DNA of 64,000 bases from assembly GCF_018350175.1 (NCBI RefSeq), contig NC_058368.1, positions 28,274,001 to 28,338,000 of the forward strand. Direction: 5' to 3'. The stretch is from Felis catus. Taxonomy: Eukaryota. Positions 12,527-64,000 of the stretch are shown here, piece by piece; position 1 is the first letter of the stretch, and each line of letters starts with the position of its first letter. A program made the position numbers and the translations under genes. The notes beneath the pieces are model-generated. The model searched no databases, was not told the DNA's origin, and saw only the letters and a program-made list of their open reading frames with translations.

Positions 12527-13402
12527 ATTTTTTCAAAATATAATTCATTGTCAAGTTTTCTAACATACAGTGTATACTATGTGCTCTTGGCTTTGGGAGT
12601 AGATTCCCATGATTCATCACTTACATACAACACCCAGTGCTCATCCCAACAAGGGCCCTCCTCAATGCCCATCATCCATTTTCCCTTCTCCCCCGCCCCC
12701 CCCCCATCAACCCTTAGATTGTTCTCTGTATTTAAGAGTCTCTTATGGTTTGCCTCTCTCCCTGGAACTATTTCTTCCCCTTCCCTTCCCCCATGGTCTT
12801 CTGTTAAGTTTCTCAAGTTCTACACATGAGTGAAAACATACGATATCTGTCTTTCTCTGACTGACTTATTTCTCTTAGCATAATACCCTCCAGTTCCATC
12901 CACTTTGTTGCAAATGGCAGGATTTTATTCTTTCTCATCGCCAAGTAGTATTCCATTGTATATATGAAGCACATCTTCTTTATCCATTCATCAGTTGATG
13001 GAAATTGGGCTCTTTCCATAATTTGGCTATTGTTGAAAGCCCTGCTATAAACATTGGGGTACATGTGCCCCTATGAATCAGCACTTCCATATTCTTTGGA
13101 TAAATTTCTGGTGGTGCTATTGCTGGGTCATAGGCTAGTTCTATTTTTAATTTTTTGAGGAAACTCCACACTGTTTTCCAGAGCAGCTGCACCAGTTTGC
13201 ATTCCCACCAACAGTGCAAGAGGGTTCCCATTTCTCCACATCCTCGCCAGCATCTGTTGTTTCCTGAGTTATTAATTTTAGCCACTGTGACTGGGGTGAG
13301 GTGGTATCTCAACGTGGTTTTGATTTGTATTTCCCTAATGATGAGTAATGTTGAACATCTTTTCATGTGTCTGTTGGCCATCTGGGTGTCTTCTTTGGAA
13401 AA
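12527..13402 (-). mobile_element. 5'-truncated carnivore/feline L1: ORF2 C-terminus (frameshifted) plus 3' UTR
   Basis: ORF track gives [31 protein letters not shown]...[10 protein letters not shown] and ...[19 protein letters not shown]...KWMELEGIML, the classic L1 ORF2 end. Confidence 0.95.
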
Positions 13403-14399
13403 GTTTCAATTTTTATCAAGACTTCCAGCCTACTTATCAAGCTTTAAAAAGATGAAGAAGAAGAAGATGTTTACTTGGCTTTTCTCCTTCTTATGATTAA
13501 AAGAATATCAACCTTCAATGGTCTTATATTTGCTATCTCATCTGCTTTTGTAGACTCATGTCTAGACATGTCTTTCTAAACCATTGACTTAACACATTCA
13601 ACTAACTGCCACCTCCTAATACAATAGATTTTCATTCTGATCAATACTAACCAATCTGAGGTAGCTGGGAGGGGAAGATTGCCATCCATTATAACAACAG
13701 GAAGGGCAATATTGACAGAAATGAGAAGCTAATGTATTTCATTTTATAATTATCACTATTAATGACAATGACAATGACCCAGCACGGACATGGGGTCCTG
13801 ATTTTGGCACAAGTGGTCACTTGGGTTTACAGAAGCCACTGCAATATTGCTTCATTTATAGATAAAGAAACAGTGATCTGAAGAGTTAAGATGTCTAATA
13901 CCCTTTCCAGCTCTAAGGCGCCAAGATGGTAAATTCCTGTAATTGTTTGGAGCCAGCACTCGACATGGTTATGCATTATATTTATTCAGTGTTTAATTTA
14001 TCAGCCAAAATACTTGGGGAAAGAAAAAAACTTTTCCAAAACTCTTCTAGAGGCTGCCTGCCTTTCCTCCATGTTTCTGCATTTGCAGTAACCTGAGCTG
14101 TCTTCACTTCATGCTCATCTGCTGGGGCTCATCTTCAGACAGTAGCTGGGTGGGCTACTGATTTGTTACTCCAACTACTTGTTACTTGTCTTTCTGATAA
14201 AGCAGGAAGTTAGGTTTCTAAAATTACTCCCATCCTGTCTTCCAATTTTGCTCCCACGTAGATTTTAATTTTCAGTTCAATTTCTCAAACATCTACTAAA
14301 TGCCAACCCACAAGGCAGGCAAAGGCACAATGCCTTGGAATTCGAAGAATAAACAACTCAGTCCCTATTCCGGACACTGTTGTTACCAGCAAATAATTG

Positions 14400-21992: not shown

Positions 21993-22280
21993 TAAGTGAA
22001 ATATGACGATTGCTTTAATATGAAAAAATAAAAAGAAATGAGCTGATATTGTTTCATAGCTATAGAACATAAGTCTACATGCTACTCACTCTTTGGTGTT
22101 TCTAGAGGCTTTCTTTGTGGCTTAATAAATGGTCTGTTTTCTTTGTGGAACTTCTACTGTGTCTCTCTTACAATAAGTCTATGTATGGAACTTTCTATGT
22201 TTTGATATGGGTTGTTTAACCTATTCTTCCACCTGTAATTCTAGGAAATTGAATGCTGGTTCCTGGGTTTCTCCAAACAT

Positions 22281-22549
22281 TTCTTCTTCTTCTTCTTCTT
22301 CTTCTTCTTCTTCTTCTTCTTCTTCTTCTTTTCCTTCTTCTTCTTCTTTCTTCTTCTTCTTCTTCTTCTTCTTCTTCTTCTTTTCCTTCTTCTTCTTCTT
22401 TTCCTTCTTCTTCTTCTTTTCCTTCTTCTTCTTCTTCTTTCTTCTTCTTCTTTTCCTTCTTCTTCTTCTTTTCCTTCTTCTTCTTCTTTTCCTTCTTCTT
22501 CTTCTTCTTTCTTCTTCTTCTTCTTCTTCTTCTTCTTCTTCTTCTTCTC

Positions 22550-22580
<31 letters not shown>

Positions 22581-22662
22581 TTCTTCGTCTTCTTCGTCTT
22601 CTTCTCCTTCTCCTTCTTCTTCTTCTTCTTCTTCTTCTTCTTCTTCTTCTTCTTCTCCTTTT
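22281..22662. repeat. Long compound (TTC)n/(GAA)n polypyrimidine repeat
   Basis: ~380 bp almost exclusively C/T on plus. Confidence 0.97.
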
Positions 22663-23410
22663 TAATATTTTTCTTTTTCTGGGATTCCTACCAGATGAAT
22701 AATGGCACTTATTCTCATATCTTCTGGGTCCTTGGCTTTTATTGTAATGGTCTATCTGTTGACCCTTTCCTTCTAGGAGAGTTCCTCACCTGATATTCTA
22801 ATGCACAAGCTTAGTCTCAGCCAGATTCTTCCAAGTATTCACCCCTTCACCATGTTACTGAGCTAAACTACTAAATTTTTCACACCTGCTTCCATTTTAT
22901 TCTTTTTTACTTTTTGGCCTTTCTTTGCAACACCTGTTTCGTAGCGTCCCTTATCGCTCTAGGTGTATGTAATCGTGTGCCAGTGCCAACTTCACGCTGT
23001 CCGACTTGTTGTCTTGAAGGCAGTTACGGGGACTCAGAGCTCATTTCCCCTGGGGGCACGAGGTCCTTTGTCAGGGCATGTGTTTTGGGGAAGAGCCAAG
23101 AGCTGTAGTGTGCGTCACTGTGGATGAGGGGAAGGGGGATGCGGCCCTACTGGGGAGCCCCAGACCCCATAGAAGCTTTGTTGGTTGCTCCCATTTGGTG
23201 CTTCTTCACCAAGTCCCTACTCCAGCCAGAGCTATACACTTAAATGCTTGGGGATGCACCAAGCAGAAAAGACACAGTTTTCTCACTTCACAACCTAGAA
23301 GGAGAGAGGAGGCTGCAAGTCAGCAAGTCGTCTGCACCTGTTTCCTGACTCCTGAGTCCAGCAGGGCTCTTGCGTTGCCCTGAGGTCACATGGAGGGCAA
23401 GGCATGCCAC

Positions 23411-58366: not shown

Positions 58367-58986
58367 TCATGCCAGATGGATTGGCAACATTAGCAAATAA
58401 TGTCATTTAATGAAAGGCTGGGGAAACTATCATTTACGGTATTTAGAGAAACCTAAAATACTAATGTTTCTAAGAAATTAAATAGTTTGGGGGGATTCAA
58501 AAAGCTACCAATAGCTGAGCTATGAAAATAAAAATGACTTTTAAAAATAAGAAAAAAATTCTATTGGGGGAAGAAAAACCATTAGCCTCAAAGCTATTTT
58601 GTCAGATTAGTTCTTAACAGGATAGCATTTGTCTGCAACGTCCTTGGCCGCCTGGGTGCGGTTCATAGCAGCATTAACTTGGATGCAAAAAGAATGCTGT
58701 CAGTCAGTGTCCCTGAAAACGTCATGGTCAGACCTTCCGTCAAATCAGTGTTCTTAGGATCTTAACACACTATGCACGTGTCTAGAAGAATAAATGAAGA
58801 TCATATTTGACAGAGATTACAAAAGTATGAACTATATATATACAACGTGGGATGACGGAATGCGCTTTTAAAAAGCTCTATCTACTTCCCTCCCAGTTCA
58901 CGGTAAGTGTTAACAGTTTACCCTATGCATCCTTATCTGTTACTTCCTCTCCCCAAACAATAAAATGGACCGGCTGCGAGTTTGTT

Positions 58987-59127
58987 CTATGCGTTTTCCA
59001 AGAGCCAGTCAAACAGTGACTTGCACCTCTCCTCCCCAGGCGTCTTCTCCCGCATGTCATAGTACCGCAGCACAGCCTGCAGGAGGTCCCCCACCTTCCA
59101 TCCCTTTCCTTGTAGTCGTTTTGAAAG
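58987..59127 (-). CDS. Terminal coding exon of an unidentified gene; PARG C-terminal-like peptide LSKRLQGKGWKVGDLLQAVLRYYDMREKTPGEERCKSLFDWLLENA*
   Basis: Strong acceptor on minus strand (gcttttctttcttcctag|CTT). 141 nt = 46 codons + TAG. Phase 0 matches the donor of the upstream exon. GC/CpG-richer than the AT-rich flanks. Confidence 0.85.
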   Translation of the reverse strand, partial: LSKRLQGKGWKVGDLLQAVLRYYDMREKTPGEERCKSLFDWLLENA

Positions 59128-59200
59128 CTAGGAAGAAAGAAAAGCATGTCCAACATTAACCAAAGACAATTTTCTAACAATCAAGTTTTCATTTTTATTT

Positions 59201-59428
59201 ATTTTTTTTTTTTAATTTTTTTTTTCAACGTTTATTTATTTTTGGGACAGAGAGAGACAGAGCATGAACGGGGGAGGGGCAGAGAGAGAGGGAGACACAG
59301 AATCGGAAACAGGCTCCAGGCTCTGAGCCATCAGCCCAGAGCCCGACGCAGGGCTCGAACTCACGGACCGCGAGATCATGACCTGGCTGAAGTCGGACGC
59401 TTAACCAACTGCGCCACCCAGGCGCCCC
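59201..59428 (-). mobile_element. Young full-length feline CAN-SINE in the last intron
   Basis: Most CpGs intact, long T tail, TSD tcatttttattt on both sides. Confidence 0.95.
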
Positions 59429-59874
59429 TCATTTTTATTTTTAATATCCGGTAACTGTAAGAATCCTGCTGCCTGTGGTTAAAATATTATTCCCCAGTTT
59501 TATAATGAAGTCTCTTCTCCACTAAATCACCACCCCTCTTGCTTCCTGCCTTTGACAAACACATCTCCTTCACAAAATGACACTTTGGGATTGTTGGGAG
59601 ACAGAACTCCACAAACCTCACCTACCAGATAGTCTGTGTGGGAGTCTAGTCTCCATTTCTACACCAAATTCTTGACCTAACTAAATACATCTGCCACACC
59701 CTCAATCAGGAACATAAAATAATAAAGATAATGTCAATCTTAATAGAAAGATGTGGATTTTTCCTTTCACAACATGCAGTGTGGCTTTTTTCTGGAATAC
59801 ACACTCTGGCCTCAATGGAAACATGGCTTTCTAAGTTAAGAAATGTTAGTGTTTTGACAAAAACCAACCAAAGT

Positions 59875-59985
59875 AAATAAATATTGTGGTGATCATTTCA
59901 CAATATATACAAATATCAAATCATTATGGTGTATACCTGAAACTAATATAATGTTATATTTCAATTACACCTCAATTTTTTTAAA
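59875..59985 (+). mobile_element. Old L1 (L1MA-like) 3' terminus
   Basis: gtggtgatcatttcacaatatatacaaatatcaaatcattatggtgtatacctgaaactaatataatgttat. Confidence 0.8.
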
Positions 59986-60109
59986 AAGTAAATACAGGTT
60001 TAAATAAACTCTATTGTCACCAGAATCAGAACACGTCTTCATTCATTTTTTTTTCTCTTTAGTCCTGTAAAAACCAATTTTGTAATATAAATATGCTTAA
60101 CCTTTTTAA

Positions 60110-60672
60110 AAAGTATCCTTTCAGAGATATAATTCACAGAGCATACACTTCATCCACTTAAAGTTTACTAGTCAATGGTTTTTAGTATACTCCCCCCCGT
60201 TGAATGTAACTCTTACCACAATCGATGTTAAAACATGTTTCATTCACTACACCAAAAGGAAAGCTCTACTTATTAGTAAACATGTCCCATTTGTCACAAA
60301 CCACTCAACTCTAGGCAATCACTAATCTACTCCAGTCTCTATAGATTTGCCCACTTTGGCCATTTCATGTAAATGTAACCATAAAACATATGCTCTCCGG
60401 CGACCAGTTTCTTTCACTTAACATGACTTCAAGGTCCCTCCATGGTGCAGCATACATGTACTTCCTTCCTCTTTACTGACAGATAATATTCCACTGCATA
60501 TATTACATTTTATTTATCCATTCCAGGATGTTTCCACTTTGGGCCTATTATGAATAATGTTGCCGTGGACATGTGTTTTCACTCCCCTTGGGTATATACC
60601 TAGGAGTGGAATTGCTGGGTTATAGGATAATGCTAGGTTTAACTTTTTGAGGAACTTCCAGAAAGTTTTCCT
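60110..60672 (-). mobile_element. Old L1 (L1MB-like) 3' fragment
   Basis: ctaggcaatcactaatctactccagtctctatagatttgcc...gggtatatacctaggagtggaattgctggg...tttgaggaacttccag. Confidence 0.82.
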
Positions 60673-61449
60673 AGGTTACTTGGGGAAGAGGTCCCTTGCC
60701 CCAAGCACTAACATGCTCACGCTCAGTTCTACTGAAGGCCTTCCTTAGCTCTCAGTTTATCCATGACTAAATGACTTGAAAATGTTTGCCTCTCTACAGT
60801 CAGTTCTAACACTTTTCCTACCCATTCCTTCTCCCTGACAATTCATTCCTTGAGCATCTCTTTCTGTCTTATTTTCTCCTTCTGCTCACAAACAGAAACC
60901 TAAACTAGAAAACTCCAAAAAGTCCAAGTAAAAACAAATTACAAAATGCCCAAAAAAATTATTTTTACCAAATGCCTTTTTCACATACTTCTTTCAACAA
61001 TATCTTTGTAAATCCCAAACCAGGAATCAAGAGTAACTGGATTGTTCCTTTTTTGTTATTACAGATCAATATATACTGGTTACTCATTTGACTATTCTAT
61101 ACCTATAAGAAGATTAAACTAAAATTCTGGTAAGCAAAATTCTGGGCCAAAAACCTTAACACTATAAACCAAAACTCTTGACTAACAAGGTGCCTGGCAA
61201 ACAGTTAAGTAAGTTCTCAATAAAGACATCCTATTAATGCATCAAATCTGACTGTTCTATTATTAGAGCCCTATTAAGTCCTCAAAGTGGTTCATGATCC
61301 CTTATGAGATGTTTAAACCTTTACTGGCTTTTGAGTATGCTAGTGTCTCCCACTAGAGAGGCTAGATTAACAGAGTAGGAGACATACTAATTACAAGGCA
61401 CAATTATGAATCAATTTAAAACAAAGAATAACTCAGTTTTTGCATACGA

Positions 61450-61680
61450 ACACATGTTTATTAACGGCACCTAACTTGGAGTACTTAGGATGTGCCAGAC
61501 ACTAGATTAAGCATCTTTTTACATCCTCACAAAAGCTCTGTGAGGTAAACTCCACAGTCATTTTCACAGTGCAGTTAAGGACACGGAGACTGGGGAGCCT
61601 GCCTGTGGTTATGGCACAGCGGACATCTGGACCCAACTATGAGACTCTACCACCTAAACGTTTACGCCCTCTGCTATCAA
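61450..61680 (-). mobile_element. MIR
   Basis: tgtgccagacactag...atcctcacaaaagctctgtgaggta...cattttcacag. Confidence 0.6.
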
Positions 61681-61769
61681 GGGGCATCTTACTAGACCAA
61701 CCACGTGACACAGAGCAGCACGTACGGCGAAACGTATCCTCACAAACACTCTGTACGGCAGGTCCTTAC

Positions 61770-61930
61770 TTGTATAAACTCCTTCTTCGCAGAGTCATGA
61801 AGACAAAGTTCTGCCACTTCAGCCTCCGAAGCGACGAGCCACTGAAGGATAATCCTTAGCTGGGGGTCTACTGTGCACGGCTCCATGTCGATATTTGTAA
61901 TGAGCAGAATCTTTCGGTCTTGCTCCAAAC
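61770..61930 (-). CDS. Internal coding exon of the same gene: (G)LEQDRKILLITNIDMEPCTVDPQLRIILQWLVASEAEVAELCLHDSAKKEFIQ
   Basis: Acceptor aatattag|GT and donor CAA|gtaagg. 161 nt (2 nt + 53 codons), open, and joins in frame to 59127 across a 2642-nt GT-AG intron. CpG-retaining codons. Confidence 0.85.
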
Positions 61931-63629
61931 CTAATATTGACATTTAAGCAATATAAAGTAAAACTCATCAATTCGATTCTCAACACCTCTGGTTTCCCAG
62001 GACAGGTACTTTCCATTTCTTAAGATTCCAGCCAATGCTGGAAAAAAATCCGTCCTTTCTTACTCCTATGTTGACATCAACTAAAACATTTATTTGAAAG
62101 GGTAAAACAATTCTACAACAAAGGAGTAACACTGATCGTCTACTGAGAGCACAGATGTAAAACTCTACTTTGAGGCACTGAATTCAGATCCTTTATAAAT
62201 GCCATAATTTGTGTCAAAATACAATACACAGGTAAAGAAAGAGAAACCAAACTATAAAGCTATAATAACCACCAAAATAGAAGTGAAACACAAAAATACA
62301 ATCTCAAATAAGTAAACCTATTAAATGGACTTTAAGAAAGCTGCTTGAACTGAGAGAAGGAAGCAGCAAGCCCTTGTATCACACGTATTACATCATAAGT
62401 AACGTTCTAAGCTCTTCTGCTATACAAACTCCTGGAATCCTCACACCCACCCTATGAGGTGGGAACTACGTGAGAGATGTGAGGCGAAGAGAGATCCAGA
62501 GTATGACAGTGGGGAGGTGGCTGAACCAGGATGTGAACACAGGAAGTCCGGCTCCATGCTCTGTGTAATCACTTCATTCTTTAGGCAGAATGGGGGAAAA
62601 AATGTCATATGCAGCCACTTAATATCCCAAGCGCCAGACTGGGGAATTTTCTGGCACACTCCTTTATAAATAAAATACTGCTCTCAAGTTTCTTTTAACG
62701 AAAAGTACGTTTTCAACATAAGGAAGGATGAATCGCTGTTGATGATAAAACTAATGACCTGTGGACCCATACCAAGTGTTTACCCACTCCTGCTTAACGA
62801 TGGCTGAGCAAAAAGCCGAGCTGAGACAAGGGCCCTCCCACACAAGCGATGCAGGGTGGGCACGCTGGAAGACATCACGCCAGTTTGTACCAGCAATGGA
62901 AATTTGGTGGTGGATGGCCCTGATTCTTCTTGAGAGCACTGGAGGGCATTCTAGACTACCACTGATCATTTTTAGGATGTGTTGGTTCCTAATTTTTTCA
63001 TTTAAAAAAACGGATCCGTGTCACGCTTTAAGATAAACGTACTGCCTTTTTCCTCCTCTCCCCCCACTGACTCTCAATCAAAAACGGGTCTAGTGCACTA
63101 TGATACCAGGCGTGGCCTCAGGGCCATTCAGTGAATCCTGCAGAGGTCATGGGGTCGGAAGCTAAGTCACCTCAAGACTTCTCTGTATTACTGGCTTTCT
63201 CAGCTCAGAGCTCCTGGCCCTTTGGAGAGGTTACTAAACTCCAGCGAAAAGGGAAGGAGCTGACCTACTGCAACTATAAACAACAATGAAAAGTAGGATT
63301 TCCATAATTTTGAATCTTTCTATAAATTCGTTTCAATCCATCTCCTAATTTACCAATTCCTAATTTAACAAAATTGAAAGTTGGCCACAATTTTCTACAT
63401 GATGAGAAGACTGGGATCTCAAAGGTGAGTGATGGCATGGCATATATCCACATGTAATTCTTCTGATTTCTATCTACTCACAAAAGAAACCCTAAAGAGC
63501 TTGCTAGTGCCAAAAGTAAACTTTGAAAATGAATTTCATTATTTATATTCACCTGTATCTTCTTTTCTCTTATTCATTCCTCAGTAAAGTCAGTTAAGTA
63601 ATGACTAGTTCATTAGAGAAAATACTCAC

Positions 63630-63707
63630 CACACGCATTTACACCATGTACTGCCTTTGGAATAACTTTGTTCACAGGCATGACTTGGGAAAAAGGATAC
63701 AATTTTT
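63630..63707 (-). CDS. Probable upstream coding exon of the same gene: xKLYPFSQVMPVNKVIPKAVHGVNAC(G); alternative in-frame acceptor gives 63630-63683
   Basis: Consensus donor GTG|gtgagt. Ends in phase 1 as required by the 61930 exon. Open frame from either acceptor (tgtctag| or cctttttcccaag|). KAVHGV falls at about the spacing of PARG KAYCGF. Confidence 0.5.
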
Positions 63708-64000
63708 CTAGACAAAGTCAACACTCTTTAAGTCAACAAAAATAAAGCAAATTATTACCCAGCCTATCTGTGACTCTAAAAGTATTGTCCTACTCCTACT
63801 TCATATCTGATGACAAAAACTTACTTCTAGAAGCCTGATATGAAGAATGTCTATTTAGCAGAAGCATTGGCACTAAAAAATAATCACCTCAGTTTGGAGG
63901 ATTTTATCTCAAAAACCAGTACATGACCTCCCTAAATAAGGAAGGCATAATTGGTGACAAAACTGATTGGAAACTCAGGTGTTATGAAAGTACATTTTAA

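Follow-up and report, generated by a model that had tools for sequence, protein, structure and literature searches.

A PARG-like module at the C-terminal end of felid AKAP11

Three minus-strand exons in a 64,000-nt window of Felis catus DNA (the window being the whole stretch analyzed) almost certainly mark the 3' end of felid AKAP11, with a C-terminal module that is a noncatalytic remnant of PARG and with a first exon that is an optional cassette unrelated to PARG. The gene is the ordinary, annotated AKAP11, and its PARG-derived tail is already known from a 2024 publication. A preliminary description of this DNA, made from sequence alone, had read PARG-like motifs in the spliced peptide and had proposed a second PARG gene; the motif reading was good, and the inference of a second gene fails. 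The main value of the case is one of calibration (i.e., a sequence-only reading sensed a remote relationship that was published in 2024 by means of profile-profile methods).

Exon structure and gene identity

The locus comprises the following features, with the boundaries of the last intron taken from the sequence and the open reading frame (ORF) text.

63630..63707, minus strand: exon 1 (cassette exon), 78 nt; acceptor AG at 63709-63708 and donor GT at 63629-63628
61931..63629, minus strand: intron from the cassette exon to the penultimate exon; with the cassette skipped, part of a longer intron reaching past 64000
61770..61930, minus strand: exon 2 (penultimate AKAP11 coding exon), 161 nt; acceptor AG at 61932-61931 and donor GTAAGG from 61769
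59128..61769, minus strand: last AKAP11 intron
58987..59127, minus strand: exon 3 (coding portion of the final AKAP11 exon), 46 codons and a TAG stop; acceptor ...TTCCTAG

The three exons of the preliminary description, with AG/GT borders and compatible phases, were all present at their junctions (including the border at 63707), and the spliced peptide that it quoted is the product of these exons and is not contained in any single ORF. Exon 1 has 25 internal codons, is stop-free, and is in phase 1 at each end. Exon 2 is translated as (G)LEQDRKILLITNIDMEPCTVDPQLRIILQWLVASEAEVAELCLHDSAKKEFIQ and provides the first half of the PARG-like C-terminal module, while exon 3 is translated as LSKRLQGKGWKVGDLLQAVLRYYDMREKTPGEERCKSLFDWLLENA and ends at a TAG stop (58987-58989), with the AKAP11 3' untranslated region extending below 58987. 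The last intron contains what we take to be a tRNA-derived carnivore SINE (approximately 59190-59428) and an L1 ORF2-like fragment (approximately 60514-60675). Over the whole window, ORFs of at least 130 aa were repeat-derived or low-complexity frames only, and Rfam yielded no matches.

Exons 2 and 3 were identical to the end of AKAP11 from Felis catus (X2), Lynx rufus (X1), and Panthera tigris (X1), at 53 of 53 and 46 of 46 residues, respectively. The C-terminus of human AKAP11, with the shared end ...CKSLFDWLLENA, is collinear with the same two exons, and tblastn searches with AKAP11 C-termini located both of them in the window. When exon 2 was used as a protein query, 158 proteins were matched at an E value of ≤0.001, the best being Lynx rufus AKAP11 X2 (100%). 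Among the 120 listed matches, those named by their source were almost all AKAP11 or A-kinase anchoring protein 11; at least two were [quoted passage not shown] two were "hypothetical protein," and the remainder were unnamed products. The junctions in cat are based on splice signals and annotated orthologues. With felid AKAP11 matched residue for residue by exons 2 and 3, and with exon 1 found in bear and meerkat isoforms, the exon structure is far beyond chance. The constitutive exons show no difference from AKAP11; for the 78-nt cassette, annotation in the compared proteins was confined to bear and meerkat isoforms.

AKAP11 (AKAP220) is a large protein kinase A (PKA) scaffold, and its last 99 to 100 residues are encoded by the two constitutive exons. 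The constitutive exon upstream of them (...DGPDDKDEDHEDDVE(G)) must lie beyond 64000 because tblastn of AKAP11 C-termini found no match to it in the whole window. The regions for the PKA R-subunit helices, the LC3-interacting motif (LIR), and FFAT are likewise upstream of the last exons, past base 64000. Bipolar disorder and schizophrenia have both been linked to AKAP11 as a risk gene, and the protein is described as the autophagy receptor for PKA-RI. For the human protein, the reported features include an LIR motif (WSNL at 1736-1739), RI-binding sites, FFAT/VAP binding, and an interaction with SPHKAP (PMC12130464, PMC12663438).

These results bear directly on the proposal that the locus is an independent, intact, intron-containing PARG paralog, i.e., a second PARG-family gene of mammals. 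The motifs do follow the order and spacing of the PARG C-terminus, and that homology is real, but the exons are collinear and identical with the C-terminal end of AKAP11 proteins annotated at 1,880 to 1,908 residues, the PARG-like part spans only about 100 residues, and the catalytic motifs are missing. A separate or unnamed paralog is hence almost inconceivable, the exons being the end of an A-kinase anchor protein of approximately 1,900 residues. Given this identity, the short PARG-like part, and the missing catalytic motif and glycine-rich loop, the view that mammals possess a single PARG gene stands.

The C-terminal module and its relationship to PARG

The module belongs to a family of A-kinase anchor proteins. 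A family search returned 64 representatives (E ≤ 0.001), and all 10 that were looked up carry names: nine are SPHKAP, AKAP3, AKAP4, or AKAP11, the last from species as far apart as mammals, teleosts, and sharks, and the tenth is the skate "uncharacterized protein LOC144600398." All 31 domain sequences matched the end of the Pfam model AKAP_110 (PF05716; best E value, 1.3e-38). The first family member scored 33.6 bits (cut-off, 25) over model positions 596 to 689 of 690, and exon 3 alone matched positions 648 to 689 (E value, 0.02; 13.6 bits). A Pfam search of two full-length AKAP11 proteins detected neither AKAP_110 nor PARG at an E value of ≤1.

Across the 31 sequences, the motif L-Q-W-x-x-A-S was invariant, and an N, the G of the VGD motif (with V and D below 90%), and the terminal W-L-L were nearly so. 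Most other AKAP_110 members carry three extra residues behind the second strand, an insertion that AKAP11 lacks; it was seen in SPHKAP and AKAP3/4, as well as in shark and some teleost AKAP11 rows. The AKAP11 module is predicted to be a compact arrangement of strand, loop, helix, strand, and three helices, and the module is common to AKAP11, SPHKAP, AKAP3, and AKAP4.

This module is a true remote homologue of the C-terminal portion of the catalytic (macro) domain of PARG. When the 31-sequence domain profile was searched against PDB sequences, PARG accounted for the best 14 of 17 matches (E values, 0.0075 to 0.047), with profile positions 21 to 82 aligned with residues 431 to 492 of the human PARG chain. 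The Pfam model PARG_cat_C was matched by 15 of the 31 family members, all weakly (best E value, 0.001), and the first member remained under the gathering score (14.2 bits; cut-off, 26.3). Exon 2 alone gave a weak match to the same model at positions 176 to 196 of 207. In a comparison of the AF2 model of the module (pLDDT, 78.5) with 48,161 chains, Z scores of ≥5 were obtained only for Drosophila and Tetrahymena PARG (Z score, 7.1, a modest value in the "common" range of the tool; next best, 4.9).

The PARG signal required an alignment restricted to the domain, from which the AKAP3/4 N-terminal columns were excluded; the whole-member profile retrieved no PARG from PDB sequences and gave one chance match, in those very columns. 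Searches of PDB sequences with single exons by phmmer resulted in no hits and two chance hits. Among named ESM Atlas clusters without PF05716, no lead to PARG emerged, the best rows being a hypothetical protein and PqqD-type clusters (0.89 to 0.90). Foldseek, run with a 111-residue model against the PDB, produced 18 matches, all with E values of ≥2.7 and none of them PARG. The profile and structure check envisaged in the preliminary description was accordingly borne out by the domain-profile search and the 48,161-chain comparison and not by Foldseek.

In canonical PARG (PF05028; 4B1G, 6OAK, 4EPP, and 8ADJ), strand, loop, helix, strand, and helix follow one another in the same order and at the same spacing. 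In the pairwise comparison, VVYF stood against ELYF/ELCL in the strand, LRIILQWLVAS was among the segments compared for the helix that follows the loop, and TVGDVYKLLLRYY stood against KVGDLLQAVLRYY in a later helix. The homology of AKAP3, AKAP4, AKAP11, and SPHKAP to PARG was published in 2024 (PMC11377751), and the source data of that paper give a profile-HMM probability of 97.98% for PARG (E value, 1.2e-4). The alignment in the 2024 paper includes Tetrahymena LIQWISCS as well as IQWLAAS and WTVGDLW of Arabidopsis (PMC11377751); this likeness of the Trp motifs to plant or protist PARG fits the earlier impression, which had pointed to plant and invertebrate sequences. A cyclostome gene matched by both PF05028 and PF05716 appears in another paper (PMC11788884). 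The claim that the peptide is related to the PARG catalytic C-terminus is thus upheld by the profile search, the PARG_cat_C matches, the two top-ranking structures, and the published probability. The module very probably arose out of the C-terminal portion of the PARG macro domain.

Loss of enzyme features and possible functions

The catalytic signature of PARG is GGG-X6-8-QEE. A pattern search for this signature or for G.G.[FY]GG found neither in any of seven full-length AKAP11 proteins, and in the AKAP11 module both GGG-X6-8-QEE and the GCGAFGG loop of PARG are missing. In the 31-sequence alignment, Gly made up no more than 10% of any of the nine columns of the loop that the conserved N and D enclose. 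The solved PARG catalytic-domain chains are 477 to 588 aa long (approximately 500 residues), of which only about 100 are represented in AKAP11. In the AF2 models, the module spans approximately 95 residues and follows an acidic linker of low confidence, and no complete macro-domain fold was encountered. A second fold, of a 469-residue C-terminal fragment of AKAP11, revealed no confident upstream element packed on the module (mean pLDDT, 46.6, a quality insufficient for fold searching). Likewise, the published alignment places TNIDMEPCTVD opposite GNWGCGAFGGD of PARG, and loss of the N-terminal portion of the PARG domain is reported there (PMC11377751). The macro domain's N-terminal half, the GGG-X6-8-QEE catalytic loop, and the glycines of the diphosphate loop have all been lost from the module, which hence cannot act as a poly(ADP-ribose) glycohydrolase.

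The module is most likely a noncatalytic structural or docking unit with which the scaffold ends. It would follow directly on a disordered acidic stretch bearing the LC3-interacting and VAP-binding motifs. A complex prediction for the AKAP11 and SPHKAP modules scored 0.02 (mark, 0.34), a result that speaks neither for nor against their pairing.

A different function is proposed by the authors of the 2024 paper. In their view, which leaves the gene as AKAP11, the module reads ADP-ribose or poly(ADP-ribose) (PAR) and serves to bind PARylated proteins, AKAP11 and its three paralogues having retained the ligand-contacting portion of PARG; contrary to a docking role without a ligand, they regard the conserved residues as favoring PAR binding and report conservation near the bound PAR (PMC11377751). 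Of the 31 sequences in our alignment, 29 retain the Asn preceding the loop and 23 the Asp following it, and the YF of the next strand aligns with the YF of PARG. The glycine-rich loop itself, however, is replaced and variable (≤10% Gly per column), and the half of the macro domain with the catalytic loop is missing. In PARG structures, that half also carries much of the adenine and ribose pocket. Moreover, binding data were not found in the available portions of PMC11377751. We regard a functional PAR reader as unlikely. For the broader proposition that the PARG remnant of AKAP11, SPHKAP, AKAP3, and AKAP4 may recognize ADP-ribose or PAR or act in homotypic docking, we see a slim chance only. 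If true, it would link ADP-ribosylation signaling to PKA scaffolds and PKA-RI autophagy, and a carnivore cassette of 26 residues directly ahead of the module would tune its function.

The carnivore cassette exon

Exon 1 is an alternative, frame-preserving 78-nt exon that places 26 extra residues after the acidic linker and before the PARG-like module. A homologous stretch of 25 residues occurred in 7 of 176 compared proteins longer than 1,500 aa, all of which were bear or meerkat AKAP11 isoforms (Ursus arctos X1 and X3; U. americanus X1, X3, and X5; and two Suricata isoforms). The cassette would lengthen the linker ahead of the module, and it is unrelated to PARG. The motif KAVHGV, which the preliminary description had counted among the PARG elements, belongs to this exon and falls outside the PARG-aligned part; both our alignments and the published one begin at the ...LLITN... 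strand.

It is quite conceivable, though on balance somewhat doubtful, that the cassette is unused in felids and represents an annotation artefact or a peculiarity of bears and meerkats that happens to be open here by chance. No cassette was found in the felid AKAP11 isoforms compared (15 of the 43 felid-cluster members listed). Its residue identity between cat and bear (19/25) and between cat and meerkat (17/25) was lower than that of exon 2 in the same comparisons (52/53 and 48/53, respectively), which is consistent with such disuse, although for bears it exceeded that of exon 3 (31/46 and 32/46). The splice signals and reading frame are nevertheless intact in cat, and the exon is annotated in both carnivore suborders (bears and the meerkat). 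In the literature consulted here, we came across no earlier description of the carnivore cassette exon ahead of the module, which is a minor annotation point.

AKAP11 exons and a candidate alternative cassette

Reading the minus strand of window positions 58800 to 64000 confirmed the borders and frames of three spliced exons:

58987-59127 (-): exon 3, the terminal coding piece, directly after ...TTCCTAG; 46 codons and a TAG stop
61770-61930 (-): exon 2, after ...ATTAG, with GTAAGG next; 53 codons once two bases complete a Gly codon
63630-63707 (-): 5' exon, after ...GTCTAG, with GTGAGT next; 78 nt, 25 internal codons, no stop

As the preliminary description had noted, the joined peptide is spread over the exons, and no single ORF in the window carries it. 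Its proposal of a separate PARG paralog, i.e., a second mammalian PARG gene, had to be abandoned: the exons end AKAP11, and the enzyme features of PARG fail.

With the 53 residues of exon 2 as the query, 158 proteins among 176 candidates were matched at an E value of ≤0.001. Among the 120 matches listed, the named entries were almost all AKAP11 or A-kinase anchoring protein 11, and at least two were "A-kinase anchor 110kDa C-terminal domain-containing protein"; two were hypothetical proteins, and the remainder were unnamed contig products. The best match was Lynx rufus AKAP11 isoform X2 (100% identity). Full-length AKAP11 proteins terminate in ...DGPDDKDEDHEDDVEG followed directly by LEQDRK...FDWLLENA, and human AKAP11 ends alike. 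The AKAP11 proteins of Felis catus (X2), L. rufus (X1), and Panthera tigris (X1) matched the window translations completely (exon 2, 53/53; exon 3, 46/46), with lower identities for human (44/53 and 37/46) and catshark (17/53 and 26/46). In tblastn searches of the window with AKAP11 C-termini, exons 2 and 3 were the sole matches and no exon was found for the acidic stretch preceding exon 2; thus, the remainder of the gene is located past position 64000. The locus is the annotated 3' end of AKAP11.

The 5' exon is a frame-preserving unit (phase 1 in, phase 1 out). A word search of the collected proteins detected counterparts of its 25 residues in 7 of 176 proteins longer than 1,500 residues (Ursus arctos X1 and X3; U. 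americanus X1, X3, and X5; and two Suricata isoforms), where they fall exactly between ...EDAGEG and GLEQDRK. The exon was found in none of the collected felid isoforms (15 of the 43 felid-cluster members were listed), and the cat copy is intact, with an open frame and AG/GT borders. The cat version is identical to its counterparts at 19/25 residues in bears and at 17/25 in meerkat. Exon 2 scores higher in these proteins (52/53 and 48/53, respectively), and exon 3 scores lower in bears (31/46 and 32/46). We interpret 63630-63707 as an alternative carnivore AKAP11 cassette under weak constraint and as a candidate exon in cat.

A 28-residue Ser-rich segment (NGNSSSWSSLGLEGDLYEDNLSFPTTDS) immediately preceding the acidic linker distinguishes two felid AKAP11 isoforms (P0005 and P0003); it represents another alternative exon, beyond the window.

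Remote likeness to PARG

The AKAP11-PARG relationship is already published. According to PMC11377751 (Nat Commun 2024;15:7748), AKAP3, AKAP4, SPHKAP, and AKAP11 contain "four hitherto unknown PARG domains," which the paper lists in a supplementary table ("PARG Macro: AKAP3, AKAP4, AKAP11, SPHKAP"); its source data match the AKAP11 module to human PARG isoform d (probability, 97.98; E value, 1.2e-4; 122 columns). The alignment in its Supplementary Fig. 6a spans exactly the residues encoded by these exons and includes IQWLAAS and WTVGDLW from Arabidopsis and LIQWISCS from Tetrahymena, which bears out the earlier remark that the Trp motifs look plant/invertebrate-like. The preliminary description was also correct in its reading of the splice structure and perceptive in its motif match. 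In the portion of the literature on AKAP11 with PARG or AlphaFold that was covered, the homology is treated in PMC11377751 alone. A table in PMC11788884 lists a cyclostome "PARG_homolog" gene matching both PF05028 (PARG_cat) and PF05716 (AKAP_110); these could be overlapping matches on one homologous stretch, or the gene could be a form near the origin of the AKAP tail.

Searched individually, the exons yielded no more than hints in Pfam (exon 2, PARG_cat_C, E value of 0.13, model positions 176 to 196 of 207; exon 3, AKAP_110, E value of 0.02, positions 648 to 689 of 690). When a 111-residue copy of the module derived from a transcript (P0010) was searched exhaustively with HMMER, 64 representatives were matched (E value, ≤0.001). 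All 10 representatives looked up have names: nine are AKAP11 (mammals, sharks, and a teleost), SPHKAP, AKAP3, or AKAP4, and one is the skate "uncharacterized protein LOC144600398." In a domain-only alignment of 31 of the 64 (A2), L-Q-W-x-x-A-S was invariant, and N, the G of the VGD motif, and the terminal W-L-L were nearly so (V and D of VGD, <90%). Against 177,635 PDB sequences, the A2 profile matched 17 at an E value of ≤10; the best 14 were all entries for poly(ADP-ribose) glycohydrolase from human, Tetrahymena, rat, and mouse (0.0075 to 0.047), and the other three had E values of ≥0.39. Profile positions 21 to 82 aligned to the PARG stretch ...VVYF...TVGDVYKLLLRYYNEE. Scanned one by one, all 31 members matched AKAP_110 and 15 matched PARG_cat_C (best E value, 0.001; every match below the gathering score), followed by Rep_fac_C (6/31). 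A profile including AKAP3/4 N-terminal columns did not find PARG in the PDB.

An AlphaFold2 model of the module, built from an alignment of whole short and medium family members, has four helices (pLDDT, 78.5). Foldseek, suggested previously together with AlphaFold, returned no PARG match for the model. In a separate comparison with 48,161 representative chains, the only two chains with a Z of ≥5 were both PARG (8adj_A: Z, 7.1; rmsd, 3.6; 95 aligned; 4epp_A: Z, 7.1; rmsd, 6.8; 93 aligned; next chain, Z of 4.9), a Z of 7 being common according to the tool's own note. An Atlas search gave no lead to PARG. Weighing the profile, Pfam, and fold matches with the Foldseek, Atlas, and wider-profile negatives, we consider the claimed relation to the PARG C-terminus credible but remote.

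Loss of enzyme features and probable role of the module

Neither GGG-X6-8-QEE nor G.G.[FY]GG was present in any of seven full-length AKAP11 proteins. The loop separating the conserved Asn from the conserved Asp matches that of PARG in length, with Gly at ≤10% per column (31 sequences); in the published alignment (PMC11377751), AKAP11 has TNIDMEPCTVD, in contrast to GNWGCGAFGGD in PARG. The module itself spans only ~95 residues and is preceded by an acidic linker of low confidence, and in a model of a 469-residue AKAP11 C-terminal fragment (mean pLDDT, 46.6), nothing confident packs on it. With GGG-X6-8-QEE, the glycine loop, and the rest of the domain missing, the module is a PARG remnant and not a glycohydrolase; therefore, mammals still have one PARG gene.

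Exons 61770-61930 and 58987-59127 form the end of a PKA scaffold. According to PMC12130464 and PMC12663438, human AKAP11 has RI-binding helices (615 to 628 and 1650 to 1663), an LIR motif (WSNL, 1736 to 1739), and an FFAT motif, which serve autophagic PKA-RI turnover and association with VAP and SPHKAP. The published proposal that the module binds PAR (PMC11377751) retains some support in our alignments, from the Asn kept in 29/31 sequences, the Asp in 23/31, and a YF aligned with PARG; we regard it as improbable. The conserved tail would most likely be a noncatalytic structural or docking module. A predicted complex of the AKAP11 and SPHKAP modules scored 0.02 (mark, 0.34), which weighs neither for nor against contact.

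Surrounding sequence

No Rfam match was found over the window, and long frames elsewhere in it are repeat-like or low complexity only. The last AKAP11 intron contains what we take to be a carnivore SINE of tRNA origin that has an A-rich tail (~59190-59428 [-]; head, GGGGCGCCTGGGTGGCGCAG...). Open frames at 60514-60675 (-), inside the same intron, and 12980-13405 (-) carry LINE-1 ORF2-like text (...AIPLLGIYP... and ...LRYHLTPV...), presumably from L1 fragments. A long purine/pyrimidine low-complexity tract (~22180-22790) yields poly-S/F/L/K/E/R frames on both strands.
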